DNA of 64,000 bases from Somniosus microcephalus (GCA_052327205.1 JBMRGM010000041.1:9920001-9984000), one strand, 5' to 3'; counted from the first letter of the stretch, positions 46,801 through 60,013 are shown. Numbers and translations are program-made. The notes: generated by a model not told the origin, from the sequence alone.

Positions 46801-48636
46801 AACCTCGGCTCGCTGTAGTCTCACGCCCCGAGGCCAAGGGTATTAAAGCTCTCCGTAGCATCAGACCGGCTCTTTGGAAGAGCCGTCCAATACCTTCCTG
46901 GGCCACACAGGTTCAGGTGATAGCTTGAGAACCAGCTATACAGTTCAAATCCATGCCATCAATTTATAAACCAATCTCGACATTCTGTTTTAGCGAGCTC
47001 TTTCCAAACCTCCAGGGCCACAAAACTCCAAGTGAAATAAGCCAGCAAATGAGGAATAGAGACACATAGAATGTAGTTGCTTGGGCTTCAAGGGCTGCCT
47101 GCGGCCTTAAGCCCAACGCCCCTACCCGAGGGTAATTTTGAGAAGGGAAGGGAGGCAGAGAAAGGAGAATTCATTCGCCGGCTATTTTGGAGTGAAGGGG
47201 AATCGAGTGAGCAGCGGGCCACCTGAATCCATGACCTACTGCCGATTGGGTTAAGTTGCTGACAGAGCCCACCTACCTCTCGCAGAATGGCATTGCCGTC
47301 GTTTGTCATAACGATGCCGCCCATGGGATCCAGCAACATCTGGGGGGGGACAGGAAATTACATATTAACTTCAATATTGAACTACAATACACCCAGTTCC
47401 TGCTTCCCCCCCACTTGCAGTCTGAAACTGTCCCTCCACCAATTTAATTACACCCCCACTCCCCAAAAGGAAGAAACTCAGGTCAGGGCACAGCTTGAAG
47501 AGCAGCAGCAGCTCTCAGTGTCTTCATGCATGACTCTAAATGAGCTGCTCGAGGTCCTGAAAGCCAAGCCCAATCTAGTCCCTCATGAGCGCACTGCATG
47601 GGGATGCCGAGACTAACTCAATCACTGGCCTGTGCAGCTGCACACCCGCGCCGCTGCTCCAACAGCTAACTCCGCACAGACCAGGGCCTTNNNNNNNNNN
47701 NNNNNNNNNNNNNNNNNNNNNNNNNNNNNNNNNNNNNNNNNNNNNNNNNNNNNNNNNNNNNNNNNNNNNNNNNNNNNNNNNNNNNNNNNNNNNNNNNNNN
47801 NNNNNNNNNNNNNNNNNNNNNNNNNNNNNNNNNNNNNNNNNNNNNNNNNNNNNNNNNNNNNNNNNNNNNNNNNNNNNNNNNNNNNNNNNNNNNNNNNNNN
47901 NNNNNNNNNNNNNNNNNNNNNNNNNNNNNNNNNNNNNNNNNNNNNNNNNNNNNNNNNNNNNNNNNNNNNNNNNNNNNNNNNNNNNNNNNNNNNNNNNNNN
48001 NNNNNNNNNNNNNNNNNNNNNNNNNNNNNNNNNNNNNNNNNNNNNNNNNNNNNNNNNNNNNNNNNNNNNNNNNNNNNNNNNNNNNNNNNNNNNNNNNNNN
48101 NNNNNNNNNNNNNNNNNNNNNNNNNNNNNNNNNNNNNNNNNNNNNNNNNNNNNNNNNNNNNNNNNNNNNNNNNNNNNNNNNNNNNNNNNNCCCCTCGCCT
48201 CCCAGGACCCCACCCCTCCAGGAGGGGAGGGGAGTGTCTGTGAGCGGACCAACACCCTCCGAGGGCCCCCCACTCCCACTGGCTTCACTCCGTGCCCAGG
48301 GGCCCAGTCCCTCAGGCTTCACTCCACGCCCAGGGGCCCAGTCACTCAGGCCTCACTCCCAGCCCCGGTCTCTAAGACCTCAGGCCCAGTCCGGGGCCTC
48401 GGGCCTCACCTTGGCCGCGTTGATGTTGCCCTGCTGCACTTTGTGTCCCGACTCCCGCTTCACGTTCTGACCTGAGGAGACAAGAAGAGAAGAAAGACAT
48501 GAGCTGAGGGGGGTTAGGGAAAGGCCTGAAACCCGGGTGTGGTATTTGGAAGCGGCCTGAAGCCCGGGTGCGGTATTTGGAAGCGGGCCCGGCCGGGCCG
48601 ACACTCACTCAGCACGAACACCTGCCGCCCCAACAT
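25734..48636 (-). CDS. CCT3: T-complex protein 1 subunit gamma, whole spliced gene span (14 coding exons, ~542 aa if exon 3 is 51 nt)
   Basis: exons translate to CCT3 (GDGTTS, NKDVTHPRMRR, EVERNLQDAM, LLLRIDDIVSG); phases join correctly; adjacent to GLMP as in human. Confidence 0.97.
26281..26685 (+). mobile_element. LF-SINE-like SINE
   Basis: tRNA-like head (GAGTTCAAATCCC), body GGTTCACTGATGTCCTTTAGGGAAGG...GACTCCAGACCCACAGCAATGTGG, tail GGGCAATAAATGCTGGCCTTGCCAGCGACGCCCACATCC shared with the LINE family at 9230-9905. Confidence 0.75.
27322..27453 (-). CDS. CCT3: CCT3 exon 13
   Basis: AKHTQEGCQTWGVNGETG...FKTSVE; CAG/GTGAGT. Confidence 0.95.
28321..28566 (-). CDS. CCT3: CCT3 exon 12
   Basis: EVERNLQDAMQV...RLLTSLR; CAG/GTAAGG. 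Confidence 0.95.
29039..29185. mobile_element. possible degenerate hAT-type MITE
   Basis: CAATGTTCCC ... GGGAATATCG imperfect terminal inverted repeats; TSD not clear. Confidence 0.4.
29448..29628 (-). CDS. CCT3: CCT3 exon 11
   Basis: ACGARIVSRTDELREEDIGTGAG...LLRGASKEILA; CAG/GTAAGC. Confidence 0.95.
29893..29974 (-). CDS. CCT3: CCT3 exon 10
   Basis: DLALHYLMKANISAIRRIRKSDNNRIAR; CAG/GTACAG. Confidence 0.93.
30870..31600 (+). mobile_element. CR1 3' fragment split by an unrelated ~390-bp insert (31040-31430)
   Basis: CR1 text ...CAAAGGGTGGTAAAAGTTTGGAACT resumes at GAAGCTAGATCAATT... Confidence 0.65.
31703..31835 (-). CDS. CCT3: CCT3 exon 9
   Basis: TDIEITREEDFTRILQMEE...TEKGIS; CAG/GTACTG. 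Confidence 0.95.
32250..33726 (+). mobile_element. 5'-truncated CR1 LINE (frameshifted RT)
   Basis: VPADWKTANVTPLFKKG, NYRPVSLTS, YLDFQKA, VPQGSVLGP, KFADDTK; tail CTTATGTTCTT. Confidence 0.92.
33790..39243 (+). mobile_element. near full-length degraded RTEX-like LINE (ORF1 with SGNH esterase; ORF2 APE + RT)
   Basis: ORF1 remnants DSNG, IIHTGTNDL, LHDRVH; ORF2 STWNIQGL, ILQETW, GDLNSRTG, SDH, FIDFQKAFDS, LLYADDLVL, C-terminal CSHC..ETEMHFLTGC; tail GCCAATAAAGC..TTGAATTGA. Confidence 0.8.
39641..39790 (-). CDS. CCT3: CCT3 exon 8
   Basis: IPGGFIHDSCVLRGVMLNKDVTHPRMRR...EYKKGESQ; CAG/GTACGG. Confidence 0.95.
40882..41068 (-). CDS. CCT3: CCT3 exon 7 (GC donor)
   Basis: TPVDVTDHEMMLKII...NGRKEIDIKKYAKVEK; CAG acceptor, AAG|GCAAGT donor. 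Confidence 0.92.
41175..42675 (-). mobile_element. full-length DeuSINE with ~1.07 kb 33-bp minisatellite expansion (41502-42572)
   Basis: tRNA-like head at 42600-42675 (GGTTCAAGTCCC), ~32 repeat units, Deu core and tail toward 41175. Confidence 0.85.
42810..43170 (+). mobile_element. older DeuSINE without repeat expansion
   Basis: single GTGCAGTACGGAGGGAGCACTGCATTGTTGG unit followed by a diverged Deu core. Confidence 0.7.
43235..43352 (-). CDS. CCT3: CCT3 exon 6
   Basis: AGEMLSVAEQYLEQQMHP...TLKEIS; TAG/GTACGG. Confidence 0.95.
44840..44936 (-). CDS. CCT3: CCT3 exon 5
   Basis: IQVQHPAAKSMIEISRTQDEEVGDGTTSVIIL; CAG/GTGCGT. Confidence 0.96.
45358..45702 (-). mobile_element. CR1 3' fragment
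   Basis: RIRGKPFRTEMRRNFFTQRVVNLWNSLP plus 3' UTR. Confidence 0.85.
46363..46586 (+). mobile_element. 5'-truncated HE1-like SINE
   Basis: AGTCCAAAGATGTGCGGGTTAGGTTGATTGG... plus CR1-type tail. Confidence 0.75.
47277..47339 (-). CDS. CCT3: CCT3 exon 4
   Basis: MLLDPMGGIVMTNDGNAILRE; CAG/GTAGGT. Confidence 0.96.
47691..48190. other. assembly gap (500 N), expected to contain CCT3 exon 3
   Basis: N run between exons 2 and 4; no TIADIIRTCLGP-like exon seen in the flanks. Confidence 0.9.
48410..48471 (-). CDS. CCT3: CCT3 exon 2
   Basis: (S)QNVKRESGHKVQQGNINAAK; CAG/GTGAGG. Confidence 0.95.
48609..48636 (-). CDS. CCT3: CCT3 exon 1 coding part
   Basis: ATG TTG GGG CGG CAG GTG TTC GTG CTG A|GTGAGT = MLGRQVFVL(S); phase 1 joins exon 2. 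Confidence 0.9.
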
Positions 48637-48689
48637 TGTCCACCTCGTTTCTCCTTTTTCTCCTTCTTCTTGCTCGAAGCTTCTGCACA

Positions 48690-49095
48690 GCCGCCGCTAA
48701 CCCGCTCGCTTGACCGACAGCCGCCTTTAGCCAATCCCCGCTCAGGGCGCGCCGCTTCGGCCAATCAGCGGAAGCGCGGCTCTCAGGCTTCGGCCAATCA
48801 GCGCGCCGGGAAGGCGGGTCCAACCTCACCGCTCCCTCTGCAGCCACGTGGGGTGGCGCCGCCTGATGGACAGCCCAATCTCGGCCAATCGGCTCCACGC
48901 CTCCGCGCAGGTTGGGCCAATCAGAGTCGGGAGGCGGGACCGGTGGTCACGTGGGGGCTGGCGCTGCGGCAGGCCTCGTGCGCCGACCGTTGCGGATGGG
49001 GAGGGGGAGGGGGAGGGCTTCCCGGCGGCCCCCGCGGTCGCGCCACTCTCGCAAGGGTTTTCGGGAATTGTGGTTCAGCGGCGATTTGTAGTTTA
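48690..49095. promoter_or_regulatory. CCT3 CpG-rich promoter
   Basis: six CCAAT boxes (48731-48921), two CACGTG E-boxes (~48845, ~48948), GC boxes, and an SBS-like site ACCACAATTCCCGAAAACCCTTGCG on minus (49050-49074). Confidence 0.8.
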
Positions 49096-52000
49096 ATGAG
49101 GAATTAAAGTTCAATGGGGAAATGTAGTTCAATGGGGAACTGAAGTTCAATGGGGAATTGTAGTTCAGCAGCGATTTGTAGTTCAATGGGGAATTAAAGT
49201 TCAATGGGGAATTGTAGTTCAATGGGGAATTAAAGTTCAATGGGGAAATGTAGTTCAATGGGAAATTGTAGTTCAATGGGGAATTGAAGTTCAATGGGGA
49301 ATTGAAGTTCAATGGGGAATTGTAGTTCAATGGGGAATTGAAGTTCAATGGGGAATTGAAGTTCAATGGGGAATTGTAGTTCAATGGGGAATTGTAGTTC
49401 AAGGGGAATTGTAGTTCAATGGGGAATTGTAGTTCAATGGGGAATTGTAGTTCAATGGGGAATTGTAGTTCAATGGGGAACTGTAGCTCAATGGGGAATT
49501 GTAGTTCAATGGGGAGTTGTAGTTCAATGGGGAATTGTAGTTCAATGGGAAATTGTAGATCAATGGGGAATTGAAGTTCAATGGGGAATTATAGTTCAAT
49601 GGGGAATTGTAGTTCAATGGGGAATTGTAGTTCAATGGGGAATTGTAGTTCAATGGGGAATTGAAGTTCAATGGGGAATTAAAGTTCAATGGGGAATTGT
49701 AGTTCAATGGGGAATTGTAGTTCAATGGGGAATTGTAGTTCAATGGGGAAGTGTAGTTCAATGGGGAATTGTAGTTCAATGGGGAATTGTAGTTCAATGG
49801 GGAATTGTAGTTCAATGGGGAAGTGTAGTTCAATGGTGAATTGTAGTTCAATGGGGAATTGTAGTTCAATGGGGAATTGTAGTTCAAGGGGAATTGTAGT
49901 TCAATGGGGAATTGTAGTTCAATGGGGAATTGTAGTTCAATGGGGAATTGTAGTTCAATGGGGAATTAAAGTTCAATGGGGAATTGTAGTTCAATGGGGA
50001 ATTCTGCTTCAATGGGGAATTGAAGTTCAATGGGGAATTGAAGTTCAATGGGGAATTAAAGTTAATGGGGAATTGTAGTTCAATGGGGAATTGAAGTTCA
50101 ATGGGGAATTGAAGTTCAATGGGGAATTGTAGTTCAATGGGGAATTGAAGTTCAATGGGGAATTGTGGTTCAATGGGGAATTGTGGTTCAATGGGGAATT
50201 GTAGTTCAATGGGGAATTGTAGTTCAATGGGGAAGTGTAGTTCAATGGGGAATTGTAGTTCAATGGGGAATTAAAGTTCAATGGGGAATTGTAGTTCAAT
50301 GGGGAATTCTGCTTCAATGGGGAATTGAAGTTCAATGGGGAATTGAAGTTCAATGGGGAATTAAAGTTAATGGGGAATTGTAGTTCAATGGGGAATTGAA
50401 GTTCAATGGGGAATTGTTGTTCAATGGGGAATTGAAGTTCAATGGGGAATTGAAGTTCAATGGGGAATTGTAGTTCAATGGGGAATTGTAGTTCAATGGG
50501 GAATTGTAGTTCAATGAGGAATTGTAGTTCAATGGGGAATTGTAGTTCAATGGGGAATTGCAGTTCAATGGGGAATTGTAGTTCAATGGGGAATTGTAGT
50601 TCAATGGGGAATTGTAGTTCAATGGGGAATTGAAGTTCAATGGGGAATTGAAGTTCAATGGGGAATTGTAGGTCAATGGGGAATTGTAGTTCAATGGGGA
50701 ATTGAAGTTCAATGGGGAATTGAAGTTCAATGGGGAATTGTAGTTCAATGGGGAATTGTAGTTCAATGGGGAATTGTAGTTCAATGGGGAAGTGTAGTTC
50801 AATGGGGAATTGTAGTTCATTGGGGAATTGTAGTTCAATGGGGAAGTGTAGTTCAATGGGGAATTGTAGTTCAATGGGGAATTGTAGTTCAATGGGGAAT
50901 TGTAGGTCAATGGGGAATTGTAGTTCAATGGGGAATTGAAGTTCAATGGGGAATTGAAGTTCAATGGGGAATTGTAGTTCAATGGGGAATTGTAGTTCAA
51001 TGGGGAATTGTAGTTCAATGGGGAATTGAAGTTCAATGGGAAATTGTAGTTCAATGGGGAATTGACGTTCAACGGGGAATTAAAGTTCAACGGGGAATTG
51101 TAGTTCAATGGGGAATTGTAGTTCAATGGGGAATTGTAGTTCAATGGGGAAGTGTAGTTCAATGGGGAAGTGTAGTTCAATGGGGAATTGTAGTTCATTG
51201 GGGAATTGTAGTTCAATGGGGAATTGTAGTTCAATGGGGAATTGAAGTTCAATGGGGAATTAAAGTTCAACGGGGAATTGTAGTCAAAATGGGGAATTGT
51301 AGTTCAATGGGGAAGTGTAGTTCAATGGGGAATTGTAGTTCAATGGGGAATTGTAGTTCAATGGGGAATTGTAGTTCAATGAGGAATTGTAGTTCAATGG
51401 GGAATTGTAGTTCAATGGGGAATTGTAGTTCAATGGGGAATTGTAGTTCAATGGGGAATTGAAGTTCAATGGGGAATTAAAGTTCAATGGGGAATTGTAG
51501 TTCAATGGGGAATTGTAGTTCAATGGGGAATTGTAGTTCAATGGGGAAGTGTAGTTCAATGGGGAATTGTAGTTCAATGGGGAATTGTAGTTCAATGGGG
51601 AATTGTAGTTCAATGGGGAATTGAAGTTCAATGGGGAAGTGTAGTTCAATGGGGAATTGTAGTTCAATGGGGAATTGTAGTTCAATGGGGAAGTGTAGTT
51701 CAATGGGGAAGTGTAGTTCAATGGGGAATTGTAGTTCATTGGGGAATTGTAGTTCAATGGGGAATTGTAGTTCAATGGGGAATTGTAGTTCAATGGGGAA
51801 TTGTAGGTCAATGGGGAATTGTAGTTCAATGGGGAATTGTAGTTTAATGGGGAATTGTAGTTTAATGGGGAATTGAAGTTCAATGGGGAATTGAAGTTCA
51901 ATGGGGAATTGTAGTTCAATGGGGAATTGTAGTTCAATGGAGAATTGTAGTTCAATGGGGAATTAAAGTTCAACGGGGAATTGTAGTTCAATGGGGAATT

Positions 52001-55000
52001 GTAGTTCAATGGGGAATTGTAGTTCAATGGGGAAGTGTAGTTCAATGGGGAAGTGTAGTTCAATGGGGAATTGTAGTTCATTGGGGAATTGTAGTTCAAT
52101 GGGGAATTGTAGTTCAATGGGGAATTGTAGTTCAATGGGGAATTGTAGGTCAATGGGGAATTGTAGTTCAATGGGGAATTGTAGTTTAATGGGGAATTGT
52201 AGTTTAATGGGGAATTGAAGTTCAATGGGGAATTGAAGTTCAATGGGGAATTGTAGTTCAATGGGGAATTGTAGTTCAATGGGGAATTGTAGTTCAATGG
52301 GGAATTGTAGTTCAATGGGGAATTGTAGTTCAATGGGGAATTGAAGTTCAATGGGGAATTGTAGTTCAATGGGGAATTGAAGTTCAATGGGGAAGTGTAG
52401 TTCAATGGGGAATTGTAGTTCAATGGGGAATTGTAGTTCAATGGGGAATTGTAGTTCAATGGGGAATTGAAGTTCAATGGGGAATTGTAGTTCAATGGGG
52501 AATTGTAGTTCAATGGGGAATTGTAGTTCAATGGGGAATTGTAGTTCAATGGGGAATTGAAGTTCAATGGGGAATTGTAGTTCAATGGGGAATTGACGTT
52601 CAACGGGGAATTAAAGTTCAACGGGGAATTGTAGTTCAATGGGGAATTGTAGTTCAATGGGGAATTGTAGTTCAATGGGGAAGTGTAGTTCAATGGGGAA
52701 GTGTAGTTCAATGGGGAATTGTAGTTCATTGGGGAATTGTAGTTCAATGGGGAATTGTAGTTCAATGGGGAATTGAAGTTCAATGGGGAATTAAAGTTCA
52801 ACGGGGAATTGTAGTCAAAATGGGGAATTGTAGTTCAATGGGGAAGTGTAGTTCAATGGGGAATTGTAGTTCAATGGGGAATTGTAGTTCAATGGGGAAT
52901 TGTAGTTCAATGAGGAATTGTAGTTCAATGGGGAATTGTAGTTCAATGGGGAATTGTAGTTCAATGGGGAATTGTAGTTCAATGGGGAATTGAAGTTCAA
53001 TGGGGAATTAAAGTTCAATGGGGAATTGTAGTTCAATGGGGAATTGTAGTTCAATGGGGAATTGTAGTTCAATGGGGAAGTGTAGTTCAATGGGGAATTG
53101 TAGTTCAATGGGGAATTGTAGTTCAATGGGGAATTGAAGTTCAATGGGGAAGTGTAGTTCAATGGGGAATTGTAGTTCAATGGGGAATTGTAGTTCAATG
53201 GGGAAGTGTAGTTCAATGGGGAAGTGTAGTTCAATGGGGAATTGTAGTTCAGTGGGGAATTGTAGTTCAATGGGGAATTGTAGTTCAATGGGGAATTGTA
53301 GTTCAATGGGGAATTGTAGGTCAATGGGGAATTGTAGTTCAATGGGGAATTGTAGTTTAATGGGGAATTGTAGTTTAATGGGGAATTGAAGTTCAATGGG
53401 GAATTGAAGTTCAATGGGGAATTGTAGTTCAATGGGGAATTGTAGTTCAATGGGGAATTGTAGTTCAATGGGGAATTAAAGTTCAACGGGGAATTGTAGT
53501 TCAATGGGGAATTGTAGTTCAATGGGGAATTGTAGTTCAATGGGGAAGTGTAGTTCAATGGGGAAGTGTAGTTCAATGGGGAATTGTAGTTCATTGGGGA
53601 ATTGTAGTTCAATGGGGAATTGTAGTTCAATGGGGAATTGTAGTTCAATGGGGAATTGTAGGTCAATGGGGAATTGTAGTTCAATGGGGAATTGTAGTTT
53701 AATGGGGAATTGTAGTTTAATGGGGAATTGAAGTTCAATGGGGAATTGAAGTTCAATGGGGAATTGTAGTTCAATGGGGAATTGTAGTTCAATGGGGAAT
53801 TGTAGTTCAATGGGGAATTGTAGTTCAATGGGGAATTGTAGTTCAATGGGGAATTGTAGTTCAATGGGGAATTGAAGTTCAATGGGGAATTGTAGTTCAA
53901 TGGGGAATTGAAGTTCAATGGGGAAGTGTAGTTCAATGGGGAATTGTAGTTCAATGGGGAATTGTAGTTCAATGGGGAATTGTAGTTCAATGGGGAATTG
54001 AAGTTCAATGGGGAATTGTAGTTCAATGGGGAATTGTAGTTCAATGGGGAATTGTAGTTCAATGGGGAATTGTAGTTCAATGGGGAATTGAAGTTCAATG
54101 GGGAATTGTAGTTCAATGGGGAATTGACGTTCAACGGGGAATTAAAGTTCAACGGGGAATTGTAGTTCAATGGGGAATTGTAGTTCAATGGGGAATTGTA
54201 GTTCAATGGGGAAGTGTAGTTCAATGGGGAAGTGTAGTTCAATGGGGAATTGTAGTTCATTGGGGAATTGTAGTTCAATGGGGAATTGTAGTTCAATGGG
54301 GAATTGAAGTTCAATGGGGAATTAAAGTTCAACGGGGAATTGTAGTCAAAATGGGGAATTGTAGTTCAATGGGGAAGTGTAGTTCAATGGGGAATTGTAG
54401 TTCAATGGGGAATTGTAGTTCAATGGGGAATTGTAGTTCAATGAGGAATTGTAGTTCAATGGGGAATTGTAGTTCAATGGGGAATTGTAGTTCAATGGGG
54501 AATTGTAGTTCAATGGGGAATTGAAGTTCAATGGGGAATTAAAGTTCAATGGGGAATTGTAGTTCAATGGGGAATTGTAGTTCAATGGGGAATTGTAGTT
54601 CAATGGGGAAGTGTAGTTCAATGGGGAATTGTAGTTCAATGGGGAATTGTAGTTCAATGGGGAATTGTAGTTCAATGGGGAATTGAAGTTCAATGGGGAA
54701 GTGTAGTTCAATGGGGAATTGTAGTTCAATGGGGAATTGAAGTTCAATGGGGAATTAAAGTTCAACGGGGAATTGTAGTTCAATGGGGAATTGTAATTCA
54801 ATGGGGAATTGTAGTTCAATGGGGAAGTGTAGTTCAATGGGGAATTGTAGTTCATTGGGGAATTGTAGTTCAATGGCGAAGTGTAGTTCAATGGGGAATT
54901 GTAGTTCAATGGGGAATTGTAGTTCAATGGGGAATTGTAGGTCAATGGGGAATTGAAGTTCAATGGGGAATTGAAGTTCAATGGGGAATTGAAGTTCACT

Positions 55001-55864
55001 GGGGAATTGTAGTTCAATGGGGAATTGTAGTTCAATGGGGAATTGTAGTTCAATGGGGAAGTGTAGTTCAATGGGAAATTGTAGTTCAATGGGAAATTGT
55101 AGTTCAATGGGGAATTGTAGTTCAATGGGGAATTGTGGTTCAATGGGGAATTGTTGTTCAATGGGGAATTGTAGTTTAATGGGGAATTGTAGTTTAATGG
55201 GGAATTGAAGTTCAATGGGGAATTGAAGTTCAATGGGGAATTGTAGTTCAATGGGGAATTGTAGTTCAATGGGGAATTGTAGTTCAATGGGGAAATGTAG
55301 TTCAATGGGGAATTGTAGTTCAATGGGGAATTGTAGTTCAATGGGGAATTGAAGTTCAATGGGGAATTGTAGTTCAATGGGGAATTGTAGTTCAATGGGG
55401 AATTGTAGTTCAATGGGGAATTGTAGGTCAATGGGAATTGTAGTTCAATGGGGAATTGAAGTTCAATGGGGAATTGAAGTTCAATGGGGAATTGAAGTTC
55501 AATGGGGAATTGTAGTTCAATGGGGAATTGTAGTTCAATGGGGAATTGTAGTTCAATGGGGAAGTGTAGTTCAAGGGGAATTGTAGTTCAGTGGGGAATT
55601 GTGGTTCAATGGGGAATTGTAATTCAATGGGGAATTGTAGTTCAATGGGGAATTGTAGGTCAATGGCGAATTGAAGTTCAATGGGGAATTGAAGTTCAAT
55701 GGGGAATTGTAGTTCAATGGGGAATTGTAGTTCAATGGGGAATTGTAGTTCAATGGGGAATTGTGGTTCAATGGGGAATTGTGGTTCAATGGGGAATTGT
55801 AGTTCAATGGGGAATTGAAGTTCAATGGGGAATTGTAGTTCAATGGGGAATTCTGTTTCAATGG
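49062..55864. repeat. 18-bp tandem array (AATGGGGAATTGTAGTTC)n, roughly 375 copies
   Basis: direct reading; variant units TGAAG, TAAAG, AAGTGT; 1531-bp higher-order period. Confidence 0.98.
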
Positions 55865-55920
55865 CTGGTTTTCATTGCATATGCACAAAAGTGAACTTGC
55901 ACTTATGTACACTTGCACCA

Positions 55921-56155
55921 TGTGGTAAACCACTGTTATACCTGTCTGTATGTGTATGTGTATTCCACTAGGTACAGGTCTGGACATGCCTCGGCTGACT
56001 CCTCCCACTATTCCAGGTATATAAGTGACTACCTCCCAGTCCCTTAGTATTCTGGACGGGTCGACCACTCGAGACTAGACCTTCATTCTTTAGTTCATAA
56101 AAGCCTGGTTGTTACTCGCTTAACCTCAGTCTTTTGAGTAATTGATGGCGCATCA
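55921..56155 (+). mobile_element. putative 5' LTR of the Gypsy element
   Basis: TG...CA ends, TATATAA at 56018, CATAAA (poly(A)-signal-like) at 56096, directly before gag; the second LTR is outside the window. Confidence 0.6.
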
Positions 56156-56179
56156 ATTTTATTAACTAAATTTTTTATA

Positions 56180-57271
56180 ATGGAGAAGATCCTCACACCA
56201 GCATGCCTGGACCTGGACAGTCGGGAAGCGGACACTTCCACCAAGTTTGCTCACTGGCTCATGTGCCTCGAGGCATTCCTGACTGCCTCCACTGCGGTCG
56301 TAACGGATGCGAACAAACTGTCTGTCCTGATCTCCAAGGTGAACCACCGAGTGTACTCAGTCATCCGGGATGCGACCTCGTACACAGCCGCCCTCCAGCT
56401 CCTCAAGACCCAGTACACGCGCCCTGTGAACGAAGTATACGCTCGGCACCTCCTGGGGAGTCGCAAAAAACAACCTGGGGAATCGACTGAGGAATACCTC
56501 CAAGCACTGTCCGTGCTTGGCCGGGCCTGTGGGTGTAAGGCGGTAACGTCCACTAAGTACACGGAGGAACTGATCCGGGATGCCTTCGTAGCGGGCCACA
56601 GGTCCAACTACACCCGACAGCGACTGCTGGAGCAGAGTGACCTCACCCTCGACAAAGCCTCTGAAATCGCACTAACGCTGGACGCAGCCTACCGGGGCAT
56701 GGATGCCTACTCCTCTGCACCGTGGACGCCGCGGGGAACGACAACCTGGGACATGGTAGGACAGCCCCATAGCACCGTGCCACCCCAGCCACAGCCCAAC
56801 AATGGCCCAACCACCGCAGCAGTGTCCCAAAGCCAGACAGCAGCATCCCAAGGCCAGAAATGCTACTTCTGTGGCCAGGCCAAACACCCCAGAGCGCGCT
56901 GCCCGGCGAAGACTGCGACCTGCTCGGGCTGCGGGAAAAAGGGACACTACGCTAGCGTCTGCAAGGCCAAAGCCACCCCGAACGCCAGCAGCGCCGCATG
57001 TGGGCCATGCGAGCCGCCATCTTGGGCCCCCAACAGTGCCGCGTGTGGGCCGTGCGAGCCGCCATCTTGGGCCTCCCCAGCCATGTGCGAACCACCGCAG
57101 CAGCAGCCAACTTGGACAACTCCAGCCACATGGGAATCATGGACGCCGCCATCTTGGACACCAGCCGGGACGCAGCAGGCCGCCAACCCCCCCCATCTGA
57201 TACCCGCAGCGACACACCGACCCCTACGCTGGCCTCTGTTACGCTGGACCAAACGAGGCCACACCAACTAG
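56180..57271 (+). CDS. Gypsy gag
   Basis: QPGESTEEYL, IRDAFVAG and two CX2CX4HX4C knuckles (CYFCGQAKHPRARC, CSGCGKKGHYASVC). Confidence 0.9.
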   Translation: MEKILTPACLDLDSREADTSTKFAHWLMCLEAFLTASTAVVTDANKLSVLISKVNHRVYSVIRDATSYTAALQLLKTQYTRPVNEVYARHLLGSRKKQPGESTEEYLQALSVLGRACGCKAVTSTKYTEELIRDAFVAGHRSNYTRQRLLEQSDLTLDKASEIALTLDAAYRGMDAYSSAPWTPRGTTTWDMVGQPHSTVPPQPQPNNGPTTAAVSQSQTAASQGQKCYFCGQAKHPRARCPAKTATCSGCGKKGHYASVCKAKATPNASSAACGPCEPPSWAPNSAACGPCEPPSWASPAMCEPPQQQPTWTTPATWESWTPPSWTPAGTQQAANPPHLIPAATHRPLRWPLLRWTKRGHTN

Positions 57272-59513
57272 CTCGGTCCAAAATGGATGTTAAGGTAAAC
57301 GGCCATGCAATAAACTGCCTTTTTGACTCCGGGAGCACAGAGAGCTTCATCCACCCTGACACGGTGCGGCGTTGCTCTCTCCCAGTCCTGCCTGCGCACC
57401 AGCGGATTTCTATGGCCGCCGAGTCCCAGTCAGCGGACATTGGCGGCTACTGCGTGGTGACACTAGTAGTAGACGGGACTGTGTTCAATAATTTTAAACT
57501 CCTGGTCCTGCCCCAACTTTGCGCTGCCGTTCTACTGGGGTTGGATTTCCAGTGCCACCTCAAAAGCGTTACGATGGCGTACGGTGGCCCCCTCCCCCCA
57601 CTCACAGTCCGCAGCCAGCAGCCTCCAAATTGCCCGCCGTGCACCAGATGCAACCTCTCCACACTCAGAGTCCCCCCCCCACTGTTTGCTAACCTCACCC
57701 CCGACTGTAAGCCCATCGCCACAAAGAGCAGGCGATACAGTGCCGGGGACAGGGTTTTCATCAAAACCGAAGTGGAGTGGCTCCTGAAGGAGGGGATTAT
57801 TGAGGGCAGCTCCAGCCCCTGGCGAGCCCAGGTTGTGGTCGTTAAGACCGGCGAGAAACAACGCCTGGTCATCGACTACAGCCAAACAATAAACCGCTAC
57901 ACCCTGCTGGACGCCTACCCACTCCCCCGCATAGCTGACATGGTCAACCAGATCGCGCAGTACCGCGTCTTTTTGACCATTGACCTGAAATCAGCGTACC
58001 ACCAGCTCCCCATCCGCCCCGAAGACCACCAGTATACTGCTTTTGAGGCAAACGGCCGCCTCTATCACTTCCTTAGGGTTCCCTTTGGCGTTACCAACGG
58101 GGTCTCCGTCTTCCAAAGGGAGATGGACCGGATGGTCGATCAAAACGCGCTGCAGGCCACTTTCCCTTACCTAGACAATGTGACCATCTGCGGCCATGAC
58201 TTGCAGGACCATGACGCAAACCTCGAGAAATTCCTCCGCACCGCCCAACTCCTGAACCTGACATATAACAAGGAGAAGTGCATATTCCGCACAGACCACC
58301 TCGCCATCCTTGGCTGTGTTGTGGAACACGGGGTCATCGGTCCCGACCCGGACCGGATGCGTCCCCTTATGGAACTCCCACTGCCCCACTGCCTAAAAGC
58401 TCTGAAGAGGTGCCTAGGTTTTTTTTCCTACTACGCCCAGTGGGTCCCCTACTATGCAGACAAAGCCCGTCCGCTGATCAAATCCACCTCTTTTCCCCTG
58501 ATGGCAGAGGCCCGCTCGGCCTTCCACCGTATCAAGGAGGACATTGCCAAAGCCACCATGCACGCAGTGGACGAATCCATCCCCTTCCAGGTGGAAAGCG
58601 ATGCGTCCGACTTTGCTCTGGCCGCCACCCTTAATCAAGCGGGGAGACCTGTGGCATTCTTCTCACGAACCCTCCAGGGCCCGGAGACCAGACACTCCGC
58701 GGTCGAGAAGGAGGCCCAGGCTATTGTGGAGGCTGTGTGTCATTGGAGGCACTACCTGGCCGGAAAACGATTTACCCTGCTCACTGACCAGCGTTCAGTT
58801 GCTTTTATGTTCAACAACAAGCAGAGGGGCAAAATCAAAAATGACAAGATCTTGAGGTGGAGAATCGAACTTTCCACCTACAATTACGAGATCTTGTACC
58901 GGCCTAGGAAGCTCAATGAACCCCCAGATGCCCTATCGCGTGGCACCTGCGCCAGCGCGCAGATCGATAGGCTGAGGGCCCTCCACAATGACCTCTGCCA
59001 CCCGGGGGTCACCAGGTTTTTCCACTTCATCAAGGCCCGCAACCTGCCTTACTCCATCGAGGAGGTCAGGACCATGACCAAGAACTGCCAAGTCTGCGCT
59101 GAGTGCAAACCGCACTTTTATAGACCAGACAGAGCCCACCTGATAAAAGCCACTCGCCCTTTCGAACGCCTGAGCGTCGATTTTAAAGGGCCTCTCCCCT
59201 CCTCCGACCGCAATGTGTACTTCCTCAACATCATTGACGAGTACTCCCTTTTCCCGTTCGCTATCCCCTGCCCGGACATGACCAGTGCCACGGTCATTAA
59301 ATGTCTGAACAGCCTCTTCACCCTGTTCGGTTTCCCCAGCTATATCCATAGCGGCCGGGGCTCATCGTTTATGAGCGACGAACTCCGCCAGTACCTGCTC
59401 GCTAGGGGTATAGCCACAAGCAGGACCACCAGTTACAACCCCCGGGGGAACGGACAGGTGGAAAGAGAGAATGCAACAGTTTGGAAGGCCGCCCTACTAG
59501 CCTTAAAGTCTAG
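56998..59513 (+). CDS. Gypsy pol (protease-RT-RNase H-integrase), interrupted
   Basis: CLFDSGST, RLVIDY, IDLKSAYHQ, PFG, YLDN, ESDAS, LTDQ, H-H-C-C, VDFKGP, NGQVER; -1 frame relative to gag, true start of the pol frame uncertain. Confidence 0.92.
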
Positions 59514-60013
59514 GGGCTAGATTTTCAGTTGCTTGCGCCAGCAGTTAGCGCCTTAAGAGAAGTGATTTCCGGGTGCTATGCGTGTAGCGCCCGGGCGCAG
59601 CGCAGTTTGCGCCTCGCCCCACATTAAGTTGGCCGTTAGCGCCGGCGCAAAGTTTAGCGCCCGCCCGGATGCGCGCGCAGAAAATGGCGTCACATCCTCG
59701 TGCAACGCCCTTTGGCCGCCCCGATTCCAAACTTCAGTCGGACCGCCCCATTGTGCGGCTGGCGGCCGGAGCGTTTGAAAAAAGGAATGCAACACAACCA
59801 GCGCGGGCCCCGGGGGGCGCAAATTAAAGGGGACGTGCCCTCCAGTATAAAGGCCAGCCATTTTTCAGCAAACACTCTAGTGCAACGCATTTCTGGACAC
59901 ACAACAAGGAGGATAGCTAACTGGTTTCAAGCGGCAACAGCTCAGGTATTTTTGGACTCAGGCCAGAGCGCTGCAAGTGGCCTTTTGGAAATTTGAGTGT
60001 TTGCCAGGATTTG

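Follow-up and report, generated by a model that had tools for sequence, protein, structure and literature searches.

How an essential CpG-island promoter comes to carry several kilobases of motif-like tandem repeat at its edge, and whether that repeat does anything there, is the question raised by a 64,000-nucleotide stretch of Somniosus microcephalus DNA (GCA_052327205.1 JBMRGM010000041.1:9920001-9984000; hereafter the window). In this stretch an 18-bp minisatellite on the minus strand (49063-55863) begins 427 bp upstream of the start codon of CCT3. A preliminary description of the locus proposed that two adjacent promoter sites of the ZNF143/THAP11 type had seeded the array, and that it might tune expression, act as a factor sink or form a chromatin barrier. 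Our analysis points to a probable answer in a neutral minisatellite that arose through tandem instability and grew out of a likely ZNF143 site of the CCT3 promoter. Tandem Repeats Finder (TRF) places the array at 49063-55864 with a period of 18, 378.1 copies and 94% matches. A unit-by-unit parse of 49063-55863 on the minus strand resolves 378 units of 39 types, the commonest being the consensus (190 units), an ACTTCA variant (59) and an ACTACAC variant (32). The copies run head to tail with variants interspersed, and the 18-bp unit falls within the 10-60 bp range of a minisatellite or variable number tandem repeat (VNTR). The preliminary estimates of some 375 minus-strand copies and of about 430 bp to the CCT3 ATG agree with these figures. 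The native-looking site reported at 49050-49074 is likewise present, as is the ACTACAAATCGC variant at 49081-49092, which recurs at 49171-49182.

CCT3 is encoded on the minus strand. Its first coding exon occupies 48609-48636, with the ATG at 48636 and a donor GT after it, and exon 2 (48410-48471) corresponds to T-complex protein 1 gamma (TCP1-gamma) in eight of eight PDB matches, in keeping with the gene named in the preliminary description. The filtered 24% of an RNA run yielded nine reads: six span exactly exon 2, in the orientation expected for minus-strand RNA in the usual stranded library, and three fall with low likeness on a G-rich patch. None of the nine lies on exon 1 or at 49055-49150, a sample too thin to place the start site or to judge divergent transcription. 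The promoter is a CpG island (48600-49100, minus strand; CpG observed/expected ~1.0) in which six inverted CCAAT boxes lie at 48731-48921 and two CACGTG boxes at 48845 and 48948; the island remains unbroken as far as the array.

Within the 6.45-Gb assembly, the repeat is confined to this promoter. All 89 matches of a consensus dimer lie inside the array, with none for the reversed control, as do all 193 matches of an exact 17-mer of the unit (control 0). The array is thus a single-locus repeat, as a VNTR should be, and a dispersed, centromeric or genome-wide satellite family is ruled out by the same confinement. The preliminary description had named a genome-wide 18-mer array, independent of promoters, as an observation that would count against its proposal; the matches are local instead. 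The promoter is itself single-copy in the assembly, where no second copy or haplotig was found (the other match is a 71% intronic piece). The distal flank of 75 bp (55846-55920, minus strand), made up of a diverged last unit and ~57 bp of unique DNA before a long terminal repeat (LTR), also has a single match.

The array begins in what is likely a native SBS2 (ZNF143/THAP11) site, located at 49050-49074 on the minus strand. Twelve of its bases lie in the first array unit and a 13-base tail (49050-49062) lies outside, such that the first unit forms the 5' half of an SBS2-type site and is abutted by an SBS-like tail. In this terminal copy the ACTACAN module takes the form ACCACAA, and the bound CCT3 sites of human and mouse include the ACCAC form as well. 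The TCCCR core reads TCCCG, G being the second commonest base after TCCC in tailed sites genome-wide (29 of 236, beside A in 199, 50 of these in two arrays, T in 5 and C in 3; the non-A search pattern also allowed ACC and gave 2 control hits). The tail ends in RCR, and 16 of 25 positions agree with a published probe. The tail fits an SBS consensus at 12 of 13 positions, for which the chance is ~3e-4; 17 of the 63,987 minus-strand positions in the window fit equally well.

The orthologous promoters place such a site similarly. At the human CCT3 promoter, ZNF143 gives a peak in four of four cell lines, 352 bp upstream of the start site, with one ACCAC-type and one ACTAC-type SBS2 motif, and mouse Cct3 has a peak in three of three cell types with one ACCAC-type SBS2 (PMC3627581). 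Compared by eye, the site at 49050-49074 and the proximal human CCT3 site agree at 16 of 25 bases, a positional likeness and not an alignment, and the human, mouse and Somniosus sites all read in the sense direction of the gene. By analogy, the site at 49050-49074 would be bound by ZNF143. Cct3 is without mention in the main text of 10.64898/2026.04.27.721063.

These observations bear on the idea that the array is an arbitrary minisatellite whose frayed edge merely resembles a promoter site. Array edges usually diverge, and arrays fitting arbitrary short patterns do exist in this genome, since a search of the assembly for short-period tandem arrays of the canonical M4 motif (gap <=10) gave no match and its reversed control gave 52. 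Yet the tail that fits so closely lies outside the array, and the position and orientation of the site, like those of the bound human and mouse CCT3 sites, make a chance resemblance unlikely. We regard this idea as largely refuted already and as extremely improbable. Of the 52 control matches, 51 are on one strand and probably belong to an unrelated array.

The internal copies differ from the terminal site. The unit reads ACTACAATTCCC-C and not CCC-R: on the sense strand each unit ends in TTCC and the next begins with CC, placing a junction C after TCCC, and the terminal copy alone has G at this position. The preliminary description held that the units lack the distal half of the SBS. The tail is indeed absent, with no SBS tail of fewer than 5 mismatches in 13 following any of the 365 internal TTCCC sequences examined. 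The statement nevertheless understates the loss: because the unit reads as it does, it lacks more than the distal half, the internal units do not carry the downstream CCCR, and a full M4/TBS match is found in one of 378 units (55432-55444, minus strand), where it results from a one-base deletion. The upstream core is better preserved, with 264 RRACTAYR matches in the 378 units and the 12-mer kept in 216. The commonest variant, ACTTCA, breaks ACTACA, and the central A of ACTACA is the most variable position of all, differing in 84 of 369 units of 18 bp. Selection sparing the motif positions was looked for by position variability and was not found in the array.

Published work describes TGGGA as the ZNF143 core (10.1101/2024.05.13.594008), and published binding data indicate that fingers 2/3-6 are needed; in PMC3627581, the ZNF143 DNA-binding domain does not recognise TBS alone. 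Because the copies are truncated in the core and have no tail, and in view of these binding data, ZNF143 is unlikely to bind the internal units. For THAP11 the published observations point both ways. Its DNA-binding domain failed to bind ACTACAA by itself, and its sites in vivo are described in the same source as always linked to SBS, coinciding with SBS2 (PMC3627581). In nuclear extract, THAP11/HCF-1 stayed on a probe whose downstream core had been mutated, and RRACTAYR sufficed for pull-down (PMC5006282).

The latter experiment gives substance to a functional alternative, in which the RRACTAYR half-sites weakly hold THAP11/HCFC1 and the length of the array shifts the balance of ZNF143 and THAP11, and with it CCT3 output. 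The many preserved half-sites and the retention of THAP11/HCF-1 on a probe with a mutated downstream core speak for this alternative, the array directly abuts the native site, and both affinity and on-rate can increase when a motif is flanked by repeats (10.1101/2022.05.24.493321). Such repeat effects, however, reach tens of nucleotides (10.1101/2022.05.24.493321), so that they would leave most of the 6.8 kb without relevance. How a site is placed and spaced with respect to the ZNF143 core also counts (review PMC7154149, citing Vinckevicius 2015), the isolated THAP11 domain and the in vivo sites speak against binding outside an SBS context, and the ACTACA positions are those that vary most in the array. 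We therefore consider tuning of this kind unlikely. Since its units carry no intact site, the array also fails as a functional binding-site VNTR of the apple MdMYB10 R6 type, in which each unit has one.

Sequencing runs of four organisms were compared with positions 48191-49150 of the window. In organism B, a close relative that is a different sample with a different species label but comes from the study of the possible source run, one contig covers 48191-49116 with 5 differences. Fifteen other matching records include short, very deep unit contigs, whose summed word depth of ~6300 against 14.9 for single-copy sequence is not a copy number and fits hundreds of units. With both a junction contig and deep unit contigs in organism B, neither the junction nor the array is an invention of the assembly. 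The organism B contig also extends 52 letters past the edge of a 500-base run of N in CCT3 intron 2 (47691-48190).

Organism C, a more distant relative for which 55% of the run was read, gives a different picture. Its single contig has a promoter ~90% identical to that of the window, in which five of the six CCAAT boxes are without a listed difference. It follows the promoter to 48987 and continues for 50 letters before a 34-base piece that aligns to 49117-49150 with 3 differences. In our own scoring, a consensus dimer from the window aligns best at exactly the start, length and mismatch count of this piece, unlike arrays of 3, 4 or 5 units, which align best from 49099, 49081 or 49063. No deep unit contigs were matched in the part of the run that was read. 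Organism C thus most likely has two consensus-like units, an instance of the unexpanded state of one or two sites that the preliminary description had suggested looking for in relatives. Since the first aligned base of the piece is the second G of the run, the proximal unit of organism C likely ends in TTCCC followed by a base other than C. The G-rich stretch at 48988-49062 measures 75 bp in the window and exceeds this by 6 bp in organism B, while organism C has in its place ~50 letters that do not align; the distance from the site to the core promoter is therefore not fixed. A contig of organism E covers 48596-48788, that is, the promoter only, outside the array.

Taken with the uniqueness of the locus, the abutting tail and the bound human and mouse orthologues, the likely two-unit relative sustains the proposal that the array originated from a ZNF143/THAP11-type promoter site. 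The further claim that the two units now at the edge were the seeds is not shown: each stands at 15/18 against the consensus, the pair has been re-duplicated, and the organism C dimer fits the consensus.

The internal structure of the array records successive amplification. The most diverged edge is 49063-49188 (minus strand), where the first 20 units average 1.4 differences each, against 0.3-0.8 elsewhere. The two variant units with which it opens reappear at 49153-49188, 90 bp farther from the promoter, marking an early block duplication. A higher-order repeat, which the preliminary description does not mention, spans 51057-54730. Its period is 85 units (1531 bp), and it comprises two complete copies and an incomplete third. 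Aligned with each other, copies 1 and 2 show 1511 matches, 2 mismatches and 2 single-unit indels, and there are identical runs of 30-49 units. As a block of 1.5 kb was duplicated recently, the length of the array is probably still variable.

The same near-identity could mean that the array is real and the 1531-bp blocks are a mis-assembly. Where they align, block copies 1 and 2 agree at 99.9% of bases, and the length given for the array is that of the assembly. Against inflation, the copies differ by substitutions as well as by whole units, and the word depth of the unit contigs in organism B fits hundreds of units; we consider it very unlikely. Six array units fold into small hairpins (z -4.4), which may have aided slippage. 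G-quadruplex propensity is modest (G4Hunter mean 0.93), and a strong G-quadruplex is unsupported, as the short-loop pattern had no match in the array.

The genomic background is rich in tandem repeats. Over 264 kb, comprising the window and the next 200 kb, TRF arrays cover 28%, including arrays of 11 kb and 35 kb, and the CCT3 array is the longest locus-specific one. The two larger arrays consist of a dispersed GC-rich 33-bp minisatellite (G000:C41, on the window's scale 147412-158734 and 210669-245725; L061-L071), each ending at a run of N. Short shark chromosomes have been described as having a higher simple-repeat content (PMC10620051). The SBS2 motif class is in use in this genome, a 19-base pattern of it having 199 matches in the assembly and none for its control. 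Ninety listed sites were fetched and one overlapping duplicate was dropped, giving 89 loci and leaving 109 of the 199 outside the set. Thirty-five of the 89 are CpG-island-like and 54 lie elsewhere; an array of at least 300 bp occurs within 1.5 kb of 11 of the 35 island loci, as against 5 of the 54 others. Enrichment of the motif inside arrays was not found among these loci (4 of 89, against a mean array coverage of 6.9%).

At least six other arrays carry an SBS-type motif, some of them intact. Two arrays of a 46-bp unit on C35 (G000:C35:24934732-24935527, L073/L074; C35:160851365-160853214, L075/L076) lie upstream of CCAAT/GC-box promoters and comprise 17 and 40 units, of which 16 and 34 contain the intact SBS2 19-mer. 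At least six paralogous C35 promoters (L077-L082) hold one copy of this unit. Other sequences have been amplified at these C35 promoters as well: a 70-mer with a CCAAT box, a 22-26-mer resembling a splice donor and a start-codon 50-mer. Short direct repeats bounding the 46-bp unit are not shown, since six single-copy paralogues give 3-5 of 12 matches in the fixed 46-bp register; two of the six, inspected by eye, have repeats of 10/11 spaced 47 bp apart. On the opposite strand, ~270 bp away from the larger C35 array, is a RING-finger (TRIM-like) start exon.

Further SBS-like arrays lie outside CpG islands: 34 bp x ~63 on C11 (G000:C11:11801149-11803317, L110/L148), 33 bp x 12.5 on C7 (L088), 30 bp x 36 on C12 (L124) and 52 bp x 5 on C1 (L026). 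In the C11 array the canonical site is the terminal copy and the array extends 5' of it, as at CCT3. Since L088, L110 and L124 cluster by sequence, they may be one dispersed family. Several non-island SBS2 matches (L023-L052, L086-L145) share sequence beyond the motif, and seven loci form one repeat cluster (L024, L025, L032, L033, L051, L122 and L123). Tandem units of 68-73 bp occur near SBS2 sites at L028:2055-3015, L051, L101, L123 and L127; some hold TATA-like and splice-donor-like words and are possibly transposon promoters.

The SBS2 motif is caught up in a general amplification process and is not singled out by it. A bolder interpretation would have this lineage repeatedly turn the ZNF143/THAP11 motif into kilobase arrays that set dosage, truncated ones loading THAP11/HCFC1 without ZNF143 and the intact C35 arrays serving as ZNF143 super-sites. 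We think it rather improbable. If true, it would provide a natural series of 1, 2, 17, 40 and 378 motif copies for effects on promoters.

On its distal side the array is followed by a Gypsy-type LTR retrotransposon on the plus strand (55921-59520; 5' LTR 55921-56155, 3' LTR just beyond the window). It encodes protease, reverse transcriptase, RNase H and integrase domains, its LTRs are 98.3% identical over 236 bp, and it is flanked by a 5-bp target-site duplication. A Harbinger-type element with a DDE_Tnp_4 domain (~59.5-63.7 kb) is nested in it. A CpG-poor array could hold the chromatin of these elements 6.8 kb away from an essential promoter, and it does fill nearly the whole gap between the intact island and the LTR. 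Similar arrays, however, stand beside many sites, the unit carries no pointer to an insulator factor, and the element may have inserted before or after the array expanded. The chance that the array is a barrier or spacer is, in our view, slim.

We thus return to the neutral minisatellite grown from the CCT3 site. As the orthologues suggest, an old SBS2 site would have stood at the outer edge of the CpG island. Duplication of an 18-bp window that included ACTACA and TTCC, minus the following purine and the tail, would then have started the array. Every internal copy would have been born non-canonical, as the fourth C of a copy is the junction base, and the terminal copy keeps the tail. The dimer, which would be the ancestral state, appears to have stayed short in one relative (organism C) and to have grown to hundreds of units in this lineage, where organisms A and B display the array; the duplication of the 1.5-kb block, visible in the assembly, would be the latest step. 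Likely reasons why the array is tolerated are that it expanded outward, that it contains very few CpG (just 20 in 6.8 kb, the unit itself having none) and that neither the CCAAT/E-box core nor the native site was disrupted. For the tuning, sink and barrier functions of the preliminary description we found no positive evidence: the core is broken, the motif positions are not spared, and arrays are common in the genome background.

Several points count against this account, in which neutrality is inferred. The 264 units that keep RRACTAYR retain what sufficed for THAP11/HCF-1 pull-down (PMC5006282), and the array, being common to organism B, has persisted. Organism C is known from alignment positions and not from letters, the 50 bases between its promoter and the dimer did not align to the tail, and the tail may therefore not be conserved among these fishes. 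The 89 comparison loci are the first listed of the 199 matches, obtained with one strict pattern on the largest contigs. Variant counts in the array are not independent events, because block duplications copy variants.

As a neutral array, the locus offers a traceable birth of a minisatellite from a conserved promoter site, through a dimer and hundreds of copies to block duplication, and shows 6.8 kb of motif-like DNA being tolerated at the edge of an essential CpG-island promoter. The locus is also a natural test of a point on which PMC3627581 and PMC5006282 disagree, namely whether THAP11/HCFC1 can be recruited by an ACTACA module that lacks the ZNF143 half. Together with their single-copy paralogues, the sister arrays whose sites are intact form a copy-number series, and the intact C35 arrays are a better place than the CCT3 array to seek function. 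Arrays of ZNF143 motifs are not described in the titles and abstract starts found by our literature search, which did not cover most subscription journals.

Compared with the ZNF143 SBS2/M4/THAP11 (Ronin) motif (PMC3627581, PMC5006282), the terminal site has the 5' module, TCCCG, an SBS-like tail and a placement like that in human and mouse; the internal units differ in having only RRACTAYR and TTCCC, with C for the purine and no tail. Regulatory modules formed through local duplication likewise acquire neighbouring factor sites by tandem duplication, as pairs or small clusters in fly modules, in contrast to the hundreds of partial-site copies in the CCT3 array (PMC3188502). The apple MdMYB10 R6 allele is, like the CCT3 array, a tandem repeat of a promoter's own motif that formed in situ upstream of a gene; it consists of few intact sites with a demonstrated effect on expression, whereas the CCT3 array has 378 copies of a window that truncates the site (PMC5671642).

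In its overall behaviour the CCT3 array works like a locus-specific promoter minisatellite. The human promoter VNTRs of INS, CSTB, TYMS and HRAS1 are locus-specific arrays of 12-28-bp units with interspersed variants, that of INS extending over several kilobases, and both polymorphism and expression effects are known for them. The CCT3 array, known here from one assembly, differs from these human VNTRs in its unit without CpG and its modest propensity to form G-quadruplexes.

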